A DNA stretch of 47,909 bases, from positions 1-47,909 of the IMG/VR virus record IMGVR_UViG_2718218171_000003, one strand, 5' to 3'. Below, one piece after another: positions 31,735 through 45,742 of this stretch. This DNA is from a virus. Taxonomy: Duplodnaviria; Heunggongvirae; Uroviricota; Caudoviricetes. The notes below the pieces were generated by a model. The model had not been told where the DNA came from and searched no databases. It worked only from the letters and a program-made list of their open reading frames with translations. Positions within the stretch are counted from its first letter, which is position 1. Each line of letters opens with the position of its first letter. The translations under genes were made by a program, and so were the position numbers.

Positions 31735-32196
31735 TTAGTTAAAACATTGCTTTTTTATATATTCCTGCAGATAACCGACCTGCTTCGTCACTGTGACGAT
31801 TCGCTCTCTGAGGGTGAAATAATCCCGTTCAGCGGAGTCAGTAAGTCGGGGGGCGGTAACATCGCCCAGGCCGCCGGTGCTGGTCGCTCCGTTCGCGGGA
31901 CATCTGGCGTTGAGGTGCAGCCCACACTTGCCAGTGCGAACACAACGCTGCAAATCATCAAGCTGCTTTTTAGCATCAGCTAAGTCCTTCGTGTATTTGG
32001 CATCCAGCGCCGCTGCATCACGCTGGCGGATCTGCATGTCTTTGATGGTGGCGTTCGCCAGCTTCAGTTCTCTGGTGTTTTTGTCGCGCTGCGTTTTGTA
32101 TGTAATAGCGTTATCACGGTAATGATTAACAGCCCATGACAGGCAGACGATGATGCAGATAACCAGAGCGGAGATTATCGCGGTTACTCTGCTCAT
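31735..32196 (-). CDS. Rz: i-spanin Rz
   Basis: 153-aa ORF from [34 protein letters not shown], matching lambda Rz. Confidence 0.95.
31788..31976 (-). CDS. Rz1: o-spanin lipoprotein Rz1, embedded in Rz in the +1 frame
   Basis: Lipobox-type N-terminus ...ALASVGC and Pro-rich [17 protein letters not shown] like lambda Rz1; exact start uncertain. Confidence 0.8.
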
Positions 32197-32669
32197 ACCT
32201 CAATCTCTCTGACCGTTCCGCCTGCTTCTTTGAATTTTGCAATCAGGTTGTCAACCTTATGCTCGAACTGACCATAACCAGCGCCCGGAAGTGAAGCCCA
32301 TATATTGCTGCAACGGTCGATTGCCTGACGAATATCACCGCGATCAATCATCGGTAAAGCGCCACGCTCTTTAATTTGCTGCAGTGCAACAGCGTCCTGG
32401 CTGTTTGGAGAGAAGTCTTTCAGTCCAAGCTGTTTACGGTAATCATCCCACCAACGGGAAAGGAGTTGGTAACGTCCGGCTGCTGTTGATTTGAGTTTCG
32501 AGTTTAGCGTGACAAGTTTGCGAGGATGATCGGAGTAATCAGTGAAGAGTTCGCCACCTACAATAACGTCGTAGCCGTGATTGCGGGTTGGCTGTCGCCC
32601 GTTATCCGTTCCTTCTGACCACGCCAACATATCGAGGAAAGCTTTACGCTGAAGATTAAGATTTTGCAT
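32193..32669 (-). CDS. R: Endolysin R (lytic transglycosylase)
   Basis: 158-aa ORF with [20 protein letters not shown]...[18 protein letters not shown], matching lambda R. Confidence 0.95.
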
Positions 32670-32961
32670 TTTTCACCCCTGTCAGTCGTTCCCAGAAGTA
32701 CGTCAGTGCAACCGACCCCATCGCACCACTAATACCCGCTGTCGCGAGAATCATGTAAATACTGAATCCACTTTCGATACTGATCAGGCCACCAATAACA
32801 CCGGTGAATCCCGATACCACAATCTGAGCCAGAGCATTTATCCAGCTCCACGTTGCTTTACTCTGCTTCACATCTATCAGGTAGCGGACCAGACCGCCCC
32901 AACCTGCGATGATCAGCAAAACGAGCCAGAACGCTCCGGCAAGGCTCTCTTTTTCGTGCAT
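32656..32961 (-). CDS. Putative holin (three predicted TM segments; not lambda S by sequence)
   Basis: Directly upstream of and overlapping R; hydrophobic segments LAGAFWLVLLIIAGWGGLV, WINALAQIVVSGFTGVIGGLI, FSIYMILATAGISGAMGSVAL; ATG at 32961 (track start is a TTG at 32973); start uncertain. Confidence 0.65.
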   Translation of the reverse strand: MHEKESLAGAFWLVLLIIAGWGGLVRYLIDVKQSKATWSWINALAQIVVSGFTGVIGGLISIESGFSIYMILATAGISGAMGSVALTYFWERLTGVKNAKS

Positions 32962-39493: not shown

Positions 39494-40039
39494 TCATATT
39501 GCCCCCAGCATGGTGGTAACCATCGCCATTAATGGACCAGCCAGATCCGGGTCCACACGAAACATCGACACAATACCTTCACTCATTTCCTTCAGTTTCT
39601 GGTGGCGTGGTGCGTTGAGAATGACCGCCTGCTTTGCCTCACTGAGTTCCTTTTCCATTTCAGCCAGCCGAGCTATGAAGCTATCCTGCTCAACCAGGTG
39701 GCCGCGATATTCCAGCGGTAGTACCGCCAGAATTGCCGGGGTCAGTTCACGCACGTTATTTCGGTATTTTTCAGAATCGAATTTGTTATCGAGGAAGCGG
39801 AACAACTTCTGGCGTGCACGGCTGACATCATCAGGGAAATCGATGGTGCCGCCGCCCAGCTCCCGATACTCATTCACAATGAGTGCGGCAACAACATCCT
39901 GATTATCTGCAGCCGACCAGGCGCGAACGGCATCACGGATTTTTTCGTGGCCTGGCGCCTGTTTTGTTTGAGAACGATTTATCACCGCAGTCGGGCTAAA
40001 TCCGCTAGTCTGTTGGTATGTAAGTGGTTGCATAGTCAT
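39494..40039 (-). CDS. 181-aa early-operon protein in the cII position, function unknown
   Basis: ORF between cro-like gene and O with AAGG RBS; not lambda CII by sequence or size. Confidence 0.5.
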   Translation of the reverse strand: MTMQPLTYQQTSGFSPTAVINRSQTKQAPGHEKIRDAVRAWSAADNQDVVAALIVNEYRELGGGTIDFPDDVSRARQKLFRFLDNKFDSEKYRNNVRELTPAILAVLPLEYRGHLVEQDSFIARLAEMEKELSEAKQAVILNAPRHQKLKEMSEGIVSMFRVDPDLAGPLMAMVTTMLGAI

Positions 40040-40063
40040 TGCCTTATCAGTTAACGCCGCAGT

Positions 40064-40291
40064 TTAGGCGGCAGAATTACTCGCGTTAAACAATGGTGCG
40101 AGGTCGGGACGAATATCTGCTGGTTTAATCTTTCCACCAGTGGCTGAGACAATTTTCATTACATAGCGGGCATCAATTCCGCCACCGTGTAGCCAACGCC
40201 AAACAGTGGGTTGGGCTACACCGCATAGATCTGCCAGTCGTTTTTGACTACCTGTAATACTGATTGCGAGTTGAATGGTTTGATTTGTCAT
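40064..40291 (-). CDS. cro: Cro-like HTH regulator
   Basis: 75 aa from ATG at 40291; HTH-like QKRLADLCGVAQPTVWRWLHGG; divergent from cI. Confidence 0.75.
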   Translation of the reverse strand: MTNQTIQLAISITGSQKRLADLCGVAQPTVWRWLHGGGIDARYVMKIVSATGGKIKPADIRPDLAPLFNASNSAA

Positions 40292-40322
40292 TATCAATTC
40301 CTATTGGTATTGCAATGAATAG

Positions 40323-40351
40323 ATAATAGCAATGCGTATTAACTCAATCAA
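40323..40351 (-). promoter_or_regulatory. pR-like sigma70 promoter driving cro and replication genes
   Basis: Minus strand -35 TTGATT (40351-40346), 17-nt spacer, -10 TATTAT (40328-40323); AGGA RBS before the cro ATG. Confidence 0.6.
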
Positions 40352-40365
40352 TAGCAAAACGTGTT

Positions 40366-40393
40366 TTGACCATCAATACGCAAGCGTATAAAT
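40366..40393 (+). promoter_or_regulatory. pRM-like promoter for cI, predicting a leaderless transcript
   Basis: -35 TTGACC (40366-40371), 16-nt spacer, -10 ATAAAT (40388-40393); predicted start site at or next to the cI ATG at 40402, which has no Shine-Dalgarno sequence. Confidence 0.5.
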
Positions 40394-40401
40394 TAAAACT
40401 T

Positions 40402-41094
40402 ATGAAAAAAGAAACTCTTGCTGATCGCTTAAACCTAGCGATGGAACAATCTGGAATGTCTCAAGGCGCTCTTGCAAAGGCGTCTGGCGTAGCTCAACCC
40501 ACAATCTGGAGACTGACAAGCGGCAACGCGCGCGGCTCAACAAAAATTGTTGAAATAGCTAATGCATTGGGTGTTCGAACAGAGTGGCTCTCATCAGGCA
40601 TAGGCCCGATGAGAAATGACGGTCAACAATCAGGGAAGCCTGCTGTCAACCATTCCAAATACTTCAAGATTGACGTTCTTGATATAGAAGTCAGTGCCGG
40701 GCCGGGTGTCATCAATCGTGAGTTTGTAGAAGTTCTACGCTCGGTTGAGTACTCGTTTGACGATGCTCGTCACATGTTCGATGGCAGGAAGGCAGAAAAT
40801 ATCCGCATCATTAACGTGCGTGGTGACAGCATGTCAGGAACGATCGAACCAGGTGATCTGCTGTTCGTTGATATCACGGTTAAATCTTTCGACGGTGATG
40901 GCATCTATGCGTTTCTGTACGACGACACCGCCCATGTAAAGCGCCTGCAAATGATGAAGGATAAGCTGCTGGTTATCTCTGATAACAAGAGCTACTCACC
41001 GTGGGACCCGATCGAGAAAGACGAGATGAACCGGGTGTTCATCTTCGGTAAGGTTATTGGGAGCATGCCCCAGACGTACAGGAAACATGGATAA
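40402..41094 (+). CDS. cI: CI-type repressor (N-terminal HTH, C-terminal LexA-like S24 autopeptidase)
   Basis: HTH MSQGALAKASGVAQPTIWRL; Ala-Gly cleavage site in EVSAGPG; catalytic Ser in VRGDSMSG and Lys in HVKRL. Confidence 0.9.
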   Translation: MKKETLADRLNLAMEQSGMSQGALAKASGVAQPTIWRLTSGNARGSTKIVEIANALGVRTEWLSSGIGPMRNDGQQSGKPAVNHSKYFKIDVLDIEVSAGPGVINREFVEVLRSVEYSFDDARHMFDGRKAENIRIINVRGDSMSGTIEPGDLLFVDITVKSFDGDGIYAFLYDDTAHVKRLQMMKDKLLVISDNKSYSPWDPIEKDEMNRVFIFGKVIGSMPQTYRKHG

Positions 41095-41174
41095 TCAGTA
41101 CTGTGCTGATGAGGCTTTTGGTTAATGCGCTGAAAGAATTCTTTATAAAAATAACATTACGGGAAAGGCAAAAA

Positions 41175-41444
41175 ATGAGTGATAAAAAACTTATTAAAAA
41201 ATCAAATAACTGTGTAGATGCATATGCTGATGCATTTGGATATTCATCTTTTGGGGAAGATGACGATCGCTTAGGCTCCATATCTTTCTTTCAGCATGTT
41301 ACAGAATGGGACGCTGATGGTAGTAATGACACTGAAAGCGTAAAGTACAACATTGCAACAATTCGCATGACGGAAGATTTAATGCTTAAACTCGCTGACT
41401 TTATTCGCGATCAGCATGATAGAGCTAAAACCAATAAGTCATAA
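41175..41444 (+). CDS. Hypothetical 89-aa protein, first gene after cI (rex position)
   Basis: ATG at 41175 with GGAAAGG RBS; AT-rich; no recognisable motif. Confidence 0.45.
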   Translation: MSDKKLIKKSNNCVDAYADAFGYSSFGEDDDRLGSISFFQHVTEWDADGSNDTESVKYNIATIRMTEDLMLKLADFIRDQHDRAKTNKS

Positions 41445-41452
41445 TATTAACA

Positions 41453-41893
41453 ATGAAACACGGTTATTACGAAGCTCCAAACCTAACTGAAAAGCTTGAA
41501 CAAGCGGCAAGATCATCATCTTTGCACACCGCAGCATTTTCTCAATCAGCTGGTATGTCTGGCGGTAATGTACCTATGCTACAATCAAGTGGTAGCGGTG
41601 GCTCTGGGAGTAATAATGTGCTTGAATCGAAAGTTGCAAAGCTTGAGTCTGATGTGTCCTACATCCGACGTGACGTTGATGAGCTCAAGACAGATGTCAA
41701 ATCTATCGACAGAAACATGATCGCTGTTCTGGAGCGACTCGATTCAATAAAAGAGTCACTAGCCAAAAAACCATCCATCGATGCTGTCGATAGAAAGATT
41801 TCAGACGCAAAGCTTGCGGTATTGCTTGGTGTTCCAGCAATCATCGCTGCAGGAACAGGGCTTTATAAGCTATCAATGTACTTTTTTCTTTAG
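41453..41893 (+). CDS. 146-aa protein with Gly/Ser linker, coiled coil and C-terminal transmembrane anchor (XhlA-like architecture)
   Basis: SSGSGGSGS linker, heptad-like LESKVAKLESDVSYIRRDVDELKTDVKSIDRNMIAVLERLDSIKESL, C-terminal LAVLLGVPAIIAAGTGLYKL; AT-rich. Confidence 0.5.
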   Translation: MKHGYYEAPNLTEKLEQAARSSSLHTAAFSQSAGMSGGNVPMLQSSGSGGSGSNNVLESKVAKLESDVSYIRRDVDELKTDVKSIDRNMIAVLERLDSIKESLAKKPSIDAVDRKISDAKLAVLLGVPAIIAAGTGLYKLSMYFFL

Positions 41894-41982
41894 TGCTTAA
41901 GAAACTGCTCGCCACCTTGCATTAGGCAAAGCGATTTTTCATTCCCTATTACCCTTTCTTAACCAATCATCTAAACCCTGCC

Positions 41983-42036
41983 CCCGTGAACTGACCCCCG
42001 AAAGTTGGACAGTTCACGGGCCCGGGTTTTCTTTTG
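41983..42036 (+). terminator. Terminator-like hairpin ending the cI operon
   Basis: Perfect 11-bp stem CCCGTGAACTG / CAGTTCACGGG with 16-nt loop, then CCCGGGTTTTCTTTTG. Confidence 0.55.
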
Positions 42037-42173
42037 CCTCCCCTCATCACACACCGTTCAAAAAACCACCACAACCCCGCTTCGGTTATCGCTATGCGAT
42101 GCAAGTCACAAAATTAATTCTTTTTGCTATCAAACATTTAATATCAAAACACATCTAGCAATAGCAATAAGTA

Positions 42174-42202
42174 TTGATATCATCAATAGCAATAGCTATT
42201 AT
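42174..42202 (+). promoter_or_regulatory. pL-like promoter with overlapping operator repeats (OL)
   Basis: -35 TTGATA (42174-42179), 17-nt spacer, -10 TATTAT (42197-42202); inverted repeat AATAGC-AATA-GCTATT across the -10; AATAGCAAT motif shared with the cI-cro intergenic region. Confidence 0.55.
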
Positions 42203-42395
42203 CACCATATCGCAACAACACAACGATACGGCAACCACCTGATTCACCGTTGCGATGACCGCTTAGATCCGCAGCTTGAATTTCAGCAGGCTCAGGGGAG
42301 TGCGAGGGGTGAAGCGGACGCGTGAACGTCGGTGTGACCAGCTGAAATTAACTCAACACTTCATACCTCAGTCGCTTCAACGAGGCGGCTTAGTT

Positions 42396-42686
42396 ATGAC
42401 AACCGGCGGCCATCCACCGCCTGAATACGCGCAGAAGTCTCTATATGTTCAGCAGCCCAGCTTACGGGCAGGAGTTTTTATGGTTCATCAACATTACGGA
42501 ACGCAGACCGTTAATCGCGGTGCGGTCATGCCAGGAATGCTGGTCAAACACAAAGATGGTACCTGGACTGCATCAGCTAATTTACGCGGACGGCTATATC
42601 TGCATCGCGGCATCGAGCGCACTTATACCCGTGATTTGCTCGTGGAAGTTTTTCTCGACGGACGCGGTAACGGCCTGAATCACTAA
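42396..42686 (+). CDS. Hypothetical 96-aa protein, first gene of the pL operon
   Basis: ATG at 42396 with GAGG RBS; track ORF extends upstream to a TTG at 42276; no recognisable motif. Confidence 0.4.
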
Positions 42687-42761
42687 TCCCCTTTCCTGTT
42701 TTCCTAATCAGCCTGGCATTTCGCGGGCGATATTTTCACAGCCATTTTCAGGAGTTCAGCC

Positions 42762-43058
42762 ATGAACGCTTATTACATTCAGGATCGTCTTGAGGCTCAG
42801 AGCTGGGCGCGTCACTACCAGCAGATCGCCCGTGAAGAGAAAGAGGCAGAACTGGCAGACGACATGGAAAAAGGTCTTCCACAGCACCTGTTTGAATCAC
42901 TCTGCATCGATCATTTGCAACGCCACGGGGCCAGCAAAAAAGCCATTACCCGTGCGTTTGATGACGACGTTGAGTTTCAGGAGCGCATGGCAGAACACAT
43001 CCGGTACATGGTTGAAACAATTGCTCACCACCAGGTTGATATTGATTCAGAGGTATAA
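42762..43058 (+). CDS. gam: Gam (RecBCD inhibitor), 98-aa form
   Basis: [56 protein letters not shown] matching lambda Gam. Confidence 0.95.
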
Positions 43059-44526: not shown

Positions 44527-44681
44527 CGCATCCTCACGATAATATCCGGGTAGGCGCGATCACTTTCGTCTACTCCATTACAAAGCGAGGCTGGGTATTT
44601 CCCGGCCTTTCTGTTATCAGAAATCCACTGAAAGCACAGCGGCTGGCTGAGAAGATAAATAATAAACAGGAGGATATATGA
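44517..44681 (+). CDS. 54-aa ORF coupled to exo (overlap) and to the downstream DndB-like gene (ATGA)
   Basis: [54 protein letters not shown] translated by hand; below the ORF-track cutoff. Confidence 0.35.
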
Positions 44682-45742
44682 GTCAGGTTGGTAATCATTC
44701 ATTCGAATTTCCGGCATCGCAAGGTGTACAGGGTGGTACTGTTACACTCTTCCTTACCATACCAGGAAGATCGCTGGCTCGTTTCCTCGCTTCAGATAAT
44801 TACGGCCATACACTGTAACGCTCTCAGCGAGAAATTAATCCAAATCGAGTACGAAAATTTTTAAATTATCTCACTAACGCAGACTCAAGAAATGAGCCTT
44901 TTATCATTCCCCCTCTCGTAGGTAACTGTGATTCGAATATAGAATTTGTACCGTTTGGCAACACAAATGTTGGTATAGCCAGAATTCCCCTCGACGCCGA
45001 AATAAAACTTTTTGATGGTCAACATCGTGCAGCTGGCATTGAGATATATTGCCGAAGTTCCCCATCAACGCTCATGGTTCCCATGATGCTTACAATGAAT
45101 CTGCCGCTAAAAACCAGGCAGCAGTTCTTTTCGGACATAAATAACAACGTTTCTAAGCCATCAGCGACCATCAATATGGCGTATAACGGCCGGGATGATA
45201 TTGCTCAGGGAATGATATCCTTCCTGACCCAACATACTGTATTTGCCGATATAACCGATTTTGAACACAACGTAGTGCCATTAAAAAGTAATATGTGGGT
45301 GAGTTTCAAGGCACTCACTGATGCAACGTCAAAGTTCGCTAGGAACGGCAATCAACAACTTGAAATGGGATATATAGAATCTGTCTGGGAGGCATGGATT
45401 ACACTAACTCAGATTGACTCAATCCGACATGGTGTACACCACGCTACGTACAAGCGCGATTATATTCAGTTCCATGGAGTAATGATTAACGCTTTCGGTT
45501 TTGCGGTTCAACAGATGATGGTTAATCATTCCATCGCAGAAATAACTTCTATGATCGAAAAACTATGTGCAACTACCAGCTCTGCAGAAAGAGAGGATTT
45601 TTTTCTGATGGATAACTGGGCGGGGATCTGCACGAAAGCCAGCCAGGAAAAACTATCTGTTATTGCCAATGTGGCAGCGCAGAAAGCAGCAGCAAACAGA
45701 CTGATACAAGCTTTTACCAAAGGAAGTCTGGAATCAACTTAA
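44678..45742 (+). pseudogene. DndB-like DGQHR-domain gene interrupted by an in-frame TAA (at 44816-44818)
   Basis: One frame reads ATG 44678 ... FPASQGVQGG ... TAA ... LFDGQHRAAGIEIYC ... to stop at 45742; no ATG/GTG/TTG between the TAA and the ATG at 45074, so the DGQHR segment has no start codon. Confidence 0.6.

Follow-up and report, generated by a model that had tools for sequence, protein, structure and literature searches.

A Modular Two-Gene Cassette in the rexAB Position of a Lambda-Like Escherichia coli Prophage, a Candidate Lysogen-Expressed Exclusion System

In phage lambda, the genes rexA and rexB sit between the operators OR and OL, inside the immunity region, and encode RexA, a protein of 279 amino acids (aa), and RexB, a polytopic four-helix protein of 144 aa. 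Here we describe a gene pair in the corresponding position of the virus record IMGVR_UViG_2718218171_000003 (IMG/VR; Caudoviricetes), the whole 47,909 nucleotides (nt) of which were analyzed and are referred to as the window. Like rexA and rexB, the genes P1 (89 aa; 41175..41444, + strand) and P2 (146 aa; 41453..41893, + strand) belong to the immunity region, where they share the strand of cI, follow it directly, and end ahead of OL/PL, and they encode one soluble and one inner-membrane product, matching a proposed logic of sensor and membrane effector. Unlike RexA and RexB, P1 has only 89 residues and P2 combines a single C-terminal helix with a long cytoplasmic coiled coil, and no sequence similarity was detected. 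The remark in a first-pass annotation that neither protein resembles RexA or RexB is consistent with our family searches, which returned no significant Pfam, NCBIfam, or PADLOC family. We regard a lysogen-expressed anti-phage (exclusion) function, analogous but not homologous to RexAB, as the best explanation of the pair, with a probability of about 0.45. To our knowledge, how the sensor is coupled to the membrane effector in RexAB is an open question after 60 years.

Several other described systems share individual features with the pair. The gp30/gp31 pair of mycobacteriophage Sbash is reportedly a prophage-expressed, RexAB-like two-gene defense with a soluble and a membrane component; it comes from an unrelated phage group and is likened to P1–P2 by that reported description only. 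BstA of phage BTP1 is encoded directly 3' of the prophage cI, has its own terminator, and is highly expressed in the lysogen (PMC8585504). The P1–P2 pair occupies the same hotspot downstream of cI, likewise with a terminator following, whereas BstA is a single large DNA-associated protein of the cytoplasm that comes with an aba self-immunity element (PMC8585504), and no similarity to it exists. SieA of phage P22 is a single polytopic inner-membrane protein with the motif FxRYPxEAxxFNK; its gene lies between genes 16 and 9, beside mnt, and about a third of P22-like phages carry it (PMC10883804). In P22-like genomes P1–P2 is found in this same interval beside mnt, and the two systems have in common an inner-membrane product that is expressed, in the case of P1–P2 presumably, from the prophage; it should be noted that the interval match concerns copies of the type found in Salmonella phage UPF_BP1, the window copy sitting in a lambda-like phage. 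Unlike SieA, P2 is tail-anchored, paired with a partner gene, and found also in lambda-like siphoviruses, and the sequences of P1 and P2 have neither the FxRYPxEAxxFNK motif nor multiple membrane helices.

The PBSX/SPP1-type holin-associated protein XhlA acts together with the holin XhlB, and its genes are found in lysis cassettes beside holin and endolysin (PMC5589764). XhlA and P2 are both small proteins whose cytoplasmic coiled coil lies toward the N-terminus and whose only membrane helix is C-terminal, so that the XhlA-like architecture noted in the first-pass annotation holds, whereas membership of the XhlA family does not: P2 scores 12.1 bits (E = 0.23) against a PF10779 cut-off of 34.7, and the best variant in the P2 family, the anchor variant P0104, also remains below it (25.2 bits, E = 1.9e-5). 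NCBI gives some anchor variants of the P2 family the name "hemolysin XhlA". In contrast to XhlA, P2 is encoded in a repressor operon behind a partner gene, away from the lysis cassette of the prophage itself (holin–endolysin–spanin; 31735-32961), which lies on the opposite strand.

The window is identical to positions 3059047-3106955 of E. coli C4 (NZ_CP010121), a complete lambda-like prophage beside a truncated icd, and its + strand corresponds to the leftward direction of lambda. The gene upstream of the pair encodes a cI-type maintenance repressor (40366..41094, + strand; RefSeq start 40402) with HTH_3 and Peptidase_S24 domains, assigned to phrog_4 (transcriptional repressor), and cro (40064-40297) is divergent from it. 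Two genes of the predicted lengths follow the cI stop on the same strand, with 8 nt between the P1 stop and the P2 ATG, as first annotated, and RefSeq lists each as a "hypothetical protein" with identical coordinates. Both open reading frames (ORFs) are real genes, their homologues keeping the same starts and the ratios of nonsynonymous to synonymous substitution rates (dN/dS) being 0.05-0.23 where dS is unsaturated (0.15-0.23 for P2 between same-type copies), indicating purifying selection. A longer P1 frame from the GTG at 41103 is unsupported, as every homologue begins at the Met equivalent to 41175. The 80-nt spacer between cI and P1 (41095..41174, + strand) carries the P1 ribosome-binding site GGGAAAGG 6-13 nt 5' of the ATG, and a consensus scan detected no terminator-like site on the + strand between the two genes.

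Downstream of P2, positions 41973-42029 form a two-tier hairpin followed by UUUUCUUUU, with a folding energy of -28.7 kcal/mol (z = -3.6; none of 200 shuffles as stable), which bears out the strong terminator expected there. This intrinsic terminator (41973..42036, + strand), composed of an 11-bp inner stem, an outer stem, and a U-run, was found by folding against the 200 shuffles and missed by a simple consensus terminator scanner. Beyond it, the OL/PL-like region (42159..42202, + strand) forms the far edge of the immunity region, with two 17-nt operator-like repeats (CAATAGCAATA...; 42159-42200) and a promoter-like TTGATA-17-TATTAT (42174-42202). Because these repeats lie past the terminator and contain the motif ATAGCAAT, which also occurs between cI and cro (OR), the P1–P2 pair can be placed between OR and OL, inside the immunity region. 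Its assignment to the rexAB position is thereby upheld: the pair is co-oriented with cI upstream, is followed by the OL/PL-like site, and forms a discrete exchangeable cassette, delimited by the stop of cI on one side and by the terminator on the other. The G+C content is 35.0% in the spacer, 36.3% in P1, and 43.5% in P2, compared with 47.5% in cI and 51.6% from kil to exo; the reported AT-richness relative to cI is thus clear for P1 and only mild for P2.

The cassette has no recognizable promoter of its own. Transcription presumably originates from the PRM-like promoter of cI, with which P1 and P2 would be co-transcribed. A promoter-like ATGATA-18-CATAAT at 41416-41445 (+ strand) ends 7 nt before the P2 ATG and, if real, would give P2 a leaderless mRNA, in a way that recalls PLIT for rexB; its 9/12 matches correspond to chance level in the scan, and no internal promoter is claimed.

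The P1–P2 pair is absent from a number of phages with a 96-98% identical cI, including PhiR30_1, 4A7, and Perceval. In comparison with PhiR30_1, homology ends one base past the cI stop (41095) and returns at 42022, inside the terminator, which delimits a swappable cassette of 926 bp (41096..42021, + strand) in whose place phages sharing the cI and PL region carry unrelated cargo. The slot of PhiR30_1 (locus L002, 4359-5713; also found in E. coli NC101) carries a DUF6932 gene and a gene for a 310-aa protein; the former product has weak nucleotidyltransferase-like matches, and the latter belongs to phrog_6603, a family of unknown function. In E. coli genomes with the same flanks, the cargo consists of DUF3037 plus a HipA-family kinase, ImmA/IrrE plus DUF4411, a Ser/Thr kinase with or without PP2C, an ASCH protein, DUF6414, or a BamE-like protein, and in some genomes a short match span suggests a slot with little or no insert. 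This swapping in E. coli prophages agrees with the published description of the cI–N interval as a mosaic hotspot holding rexAB and bstA (PMC8585504). The P1–P2 cassette is present in approximately 205 of 5426 complete E. coli genomes (~4%), always on the chromosome; approximately 50 of these copies are at least 95% identical, and the other 155 or so, at roughly 80% identity, come from genomes that include that of an O26 strain and several whose large size (5.4-5.9 Mb) is typical of Shiga toxin-producing E. coli (STEC).

A second location of the module is found downstream of mnt in P22-like phages. Searching phage genomes with P1 and P2 (tblastn) identified one named phage, Salmonella phage UPF_BP1 (Lederbergvirus), in which mnt and gene 16 flank the pair and arc, ant, and the tailspike gene occupy the other side. 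The same arrangement occurs in 10 other representative P22-like loci from IMG/VR, the main source of the relatives' loci; a scan of one genome per species gave few close loci, prophage cargo being sparse there. The P1 start overlaps the mnt stop (ATGA) in loci L023 and L062, and overlaps or abuts in the P22-like loci. Lambdoid and P22-like copies share 68-77% DNA identity, and because this homology starts only 27 nt upstream of P1, the unit appears to move without a promoter of its own and to rely on that of the repressor gene. In a set of 34 representative loci, Pfam identifies the product of the module's immediate upstream neighbor as an HTH_3 protein in 22 (17 with Peptidase_S24) and as an Arc/Mnt-type protein in eight, which places the module behind a cI-type or Arc/Mnt-type repressor in 30/34. 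P1-type modules show greater diversity in P22-like contexts, with 11 representatives, than behind cI, with four. The two classical lysogen-expressed sites, 3' of cI and 3' of mnt, thus swap the same cargo.

In P22-like loci, a further small ORF on the same strand follows P2 ahead of gene 16 (L023 5464-5838, L076 5288-5620, L129 5571-5801, L116 5745-6182, and others). The products contain an N-terminal membrane helix and a coiled coil, or are signal-peptide proteins, and none is SieA-like. Because of these additional ORFs, the operon downstream of mnt seems to stack several morons.

The relatives of P2 reveal a modular family. We detected 109 homologues, distributed over the Enterobacterales (Escherichia, Salmonella, Klebsiella, Citrobacter, Enterobacter, Pantoea, Erwinia, Serratia, and Dickeya), in which the Gly-rich linker, the motif M-L-E-A-R-V-A-K-L-E-S-D-V-S-Y-I-R-R-D, the coiled coil, and the anchor are conserved and the first ~45 residues vary. 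Many of these P2-like genes are preceded not by P1 but by other small genes, with stops and starts that overlap or nearly abut: partner family C (93-106 aa, phrog_12039), the families B, B2, and B3 (136-187 aa, phrog_5893, with weak similarity to DUF6941), and, in distant relatives, zinc-ribbon proteins. B and B2 are related (hhalign probability 96%); common ancestry of P1 and family C is unproven, the hhalign alignment being full-length but weak (E = 0.04, probability 1.3%). Conversely, P1 always precedes a coiled-coil tail-anchored protein, even where the latter has no detectable sequence similarity to P2 (L124, L129, and L130). The window pair shows the defining features of the family, a small soluble gene tightly coupled to a gene encoding the Gly linker, the M-L-E-A-R-V-A-K-L-E motif, the coiled coil, and the C-terminal helix.

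The two ends of P2 behave differently with respect to these partners. Clustering of the N-terminal segments, performed with the Gly linker trimmed and SEG switched on, as the untrimmed low-complexity linker merges all clusters, resulted in groups that each occur with a single partner family only (P1, C, B, B2, or B3), whereas the anchor clusters are shared: Ts1 occurs with all five partner families, Ts2 with three, and Ts4 with two. The alignment gives the same picture, with residues 1-55 of P2 conserved in all P1-linked copies, and entirely different C-terminal halves in UPF_BP1 and L062. The simplest reading of these sequence patterns is that the partner protein contacts the N-terminal segment of P2, physically or functionally, and that the anchor may serve as an interchangeable effector or tether; modularity of partner and anchor as it appears here would be typical of conflict systems. 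The strict pairing of partner and N-terminus, combined with free exchange of anchors, constitutes a natural experiment on the coupling of a sensor to a membrane effector.

Three further loci add variants of this arrangement. In a Xenorhabdus ehlersii prophage (L010, 4532-5261), a CxxC zinc-ribbon protein is paired with a Gly-linker/coiled-coil/tail-anchored protein between the tape-measure and minor tail protein genes; a similar pair lies in a non-phage chromosomal context between rpoA and prmA (L009); and L043 (1022-1761) encodes two P2-like proteins in tandem (99 and 136 aa), with no soluble partner between them.

The AlphaFold2 (AF2) model of P2 comprises a helix at residues 11-32, a disordered Gly/Ser stretch at 33-54, a long helix at 55-104, and a helix at 109-145. 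The N-terminal helix and Gly/Ser-rich linker (residues 1-55; 41453..41617, + strand) co-vary with the partner gene and form the presumed P1-docking region. They are followed by a continuous heptad coiled coil (residues 55-104; 41615..41764, + strand), delimited by the AF2 helix and by heptad analysis, in which the heptad is unbroken over residues 55-106 with L/I/V/M at 14 of 15 a/d positions. The sole C-terminal transmembrane helix (LAVLLGVPAIIAAGTGLY; residues 119-138; 41807..41866, + strand; hydropathy maximum 1.8 at residue 119) leaves a tail of ~8 residues, the invariant K139 and seven more. The Gly/Ser linker, coiled coil, and single C-terminal helix read from the sequence at first pass are hence all confirmed by model, heptad, and hydropathy. 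Because P2 lacks a signal sequence, is rich in Lys/Arg where its one hydrophobic helix is flanked on the N-side, and ends in such a short tail, we infer that it is tail-anchored in the inner membrane with N-in, C-out topology and its coiled coil beneath the membrane.

Searches with P2, which PHROGs assigns to phrog_3556 and annotates as being of unknown function, gave nothing significant in Pfam, NCBIfam, or PADLOC, and only sub-threshold coiled-coil matches. The profile of the family matches the HK620/P22-type tail needle (gp26; 5bu5) in its trimeric coiled coil at E = 0.003, and Lpp at a similar level. A role as a tail-needle decoy was set aside as the similarity is probably one of heptad composition, given that Lpp scores alike; P22-like phages, which have this tail needle, are nevertheless among the hosts of the module.

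P1 likewise falls into a PHROGs family of unknown function (phrog_4231) and has no match in Pfam, NCBIfam, or PADLOC. This family is very small, with 15 clusters at 90% identity and, among 1.84 billion representatives, eight convincing clusters at 50% identity, all of ~90-100 aa. The protein is soluble, with a predicted fold of three long beta-strands and a C-terminal helix (beta3-alpha) that resembles, at low Z, the nucleic-acid-binding folds of PUR and PC4; no BFVD structure matched it at E <= 0.001, a sequence search of the PDB returned nothing, and P1 contains no recognizable DNA-binding or nuclease motif. P1 probably dimerizes, and we propose that it acts as an adaptor or sensor subunit.

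The P2 family also shows signs of a second in-frame start. At least 90% of the homologues have Met at position 56, where the coiled coil begins, and several annotation pipelines call an ORF of 90-93 aa from it. In the seven codons before this position, GGA makes up 39% of the Gly codons, versus 17% in the genes of this prophage, and GGAGG is present in 20/26 non-redundant loci versus 7.9 expected (maximum 15) in 400 codon-usage-weighted synonymous shuffles, a comparison that is suggestive and not a formal probability, as the loci are related to each other. The mean energy of the anti-Shine-Dalgarno duplex is -10.1 kcal/mol, compared with -8.2 kcal/mol in the shuffles, none of whose means reaches the observed value. 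In the window copy, the possible internal start (41606..41620, + strand) consists of GGGAG, 7 nt, and GTG at codon 56; with -6.8 kcal/mol it is no better than shuffles, and the feature is weakest in this copy and much stronger in most homologues. The codon statistics suggest that P2 may have a 91-aa short isoform consisting of coiled coil and anchor, without the docking segment. Dual-start genes are known in lambda (S107/S105) and P22 (SieB/Esc), and the putative P2 start would resemble these in giving a truncated isoform that lacks a regulatory N-terminus; it differs from them in resting on codon statistics and, in the window, in having a GTG codon with a modest Shine-Dalgarno sequence.

Taken together, these features can be accommodated in a working model. 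The cassette would ride in the operon of the maintenance repressor (cI, or Mnt in P22-like phages) and so be made in the lysogen, with the C-terminal helix of P2 in the inner membrane and its coiled coil, Gly/Ser linker, and N-terminal helix in the cytoplasm. P1 would dock on the flexible N-terminal segment of P2 as the specificity or sensor subunit, P2 being the membrane effector, and the lysogen would be shielded from other phages. On infection, the state of P1–P2 might change such that P2 causes abortive infection by perturbing the membrane or, alternatively, blocks an early step there; of the possible mechanisms, a Rex-like or holin-like perturbation of the membrane triggered through P1 is a tentative choice. 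We favor a lysogen-expressed anti-phage role because of the inferred transcription from the repressor operon, the exchange with defense-like cargo, the occupancy of the sieA interval, and the shuffling of sensors and anchors. The lack of a detected terminator between cI and P1, the strong terminator after P2, the sub-threshold XhlA similarity, and the separate lysis cassette are supporting context. Several points weigh against this role: P1 has no match in PADLOC-DB 2.0.0, and P2 matches only coiled-coil parts of GajA, LmuB, and JetC at E >= 0.005; the bulk of P2 is predicted to be cytoplasmic, a poor fit to the classical injection blockers, which face the periplasm or are polytopic; and the morons of repressor operons also include non-defense genes. 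Literature searches found no paper characterizing P1 or P2, with the E. coli prophage-defense screens incompletely covered and a prior description thus not fully excludable.

Each of the alternatives accounts for part of these data. Superinfection exclusion at the point of entry, with an effect like that of SieA, would have P2 tether P1 at the inner face of the membrane, where ejection or tape-measure proteins or the DNA end would be intercepted without killing. Distant two-gene relatives do lie within the tail gene cluster of the Xenorhabdus prophage, and the exclusion moron gp15 of HK97 is likewise found in a tail gene cluster. The low-Z resemblance of P1 to nucleic-acid-binding folds also counts in its favor. 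On the other side, P1 has no recognizable DNA-binding or nuclease motif, only ~8 residues of P2 would be exposed to the periplasm, and the module is present in lambda-like siphoviruses as well as in P22-like podoviruses, which speaks against its being specific for a single ejection apparatus. That the pair occupies the interval of sieA, a gene carried by about a third of P22-like phages (PMC10883804), and that a membrane-bound nuclease acting during injection shows such logic to exist (PMC13190303), both speak for a block at entry, which on balance we consider unlikely. In a toxin–antitoxin-like addiction pair that stabilizes the prophage, P2 would be the membrane toxin and P1 its protein antidote. 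Such a pair would be in keeping with the tight coupling of two genes with the small soluble one first, with the holin-like architecture of P2, with a partner that co-varies with the P2 N-terminus as a cognate inhibitor would, and with an internal start that could give a short form insensitive to P1; the absence of an autoregulatory DNA-binding domain and the use of an upstream repressor promoter in place of one of its own make it the most improbable of these explanations, and it overlaps with abortive-infection models instead of excluding them.

The pair might instead be a moron for lysogenic conversion or housekeeping, acting in envelope physiology, stress tolerance, or the timing of the prophage's own induction or lysis, with no part in phage defense. 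Repressor-linked operons do carry non-defense cargo, small membrane or secreted ORFs follow P2 in the P22-like loci, XhlA-type proteins act in lysis, and no similarity to catalogued defense proteins was found. However, the shuffling of partners and anchors and the replacement of the cassette by kinase, HipA, or ImmA-type cargo are patterns typical of conflict systems, the prophage already possesses a holin, an endolysin, and a spanin, and a lysis factor expressed from a repressor operon would be mistimed; this explanation, too, seems to us improbable. Should the anti-phage role hold, P1–P2 would represent a compact two-gene system of ~0.7 kb outside the current defense catalogues, carried by the ~4% of complete E. 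coli genomes noted above, including apparent O26 STEC-type strains, and by many prophages of Enterobacterales. It is conceivable, if doubtful, that the pair is the founding example of a widespread and previously unrecognized modular class of prophage immunity, in which docking segments, small sensors (P1, C, B, and zinc-ribbon), and anchors are exchangeable, which resides in repressor operons and other moron sites, and which possibly includes a sensor-independent short form.

The remainder of the window contains lambda-type head and tail genes (gpJ, tape measure, and G/T) together with Q, O/P, and ren; the immunity region and kil-gam-bet-exo-xis-int come after these. Between the PL-like promoter and kil (42480-42686) there is no gene for an N-like antiterminator, and the leader of ~280 nt in this interval (42203-42479) matches nothing in Rfam; a scan of 40000-42800 likewise gave no credible RNA family. 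The small RNA svsR of the NC-SV prophage (PMC12803456) was dropped as a candidate, lying within the 3' end of cI and outside the cassette. The cII position is occupied by a gene for a YdaT-domain protein (39494-40039), and a DGQHR domain-containing gene 3' of exo (44678-45742, + strand) is annotated by RefSeq as a pseudogene with an internal stop. Past the tail-fibre genes and adjoining the truncated icd, the prophage carries an Avs2 (AVAST type 2) anti-phage gene (2198-6652, - strand), a second and already known defense cargo.

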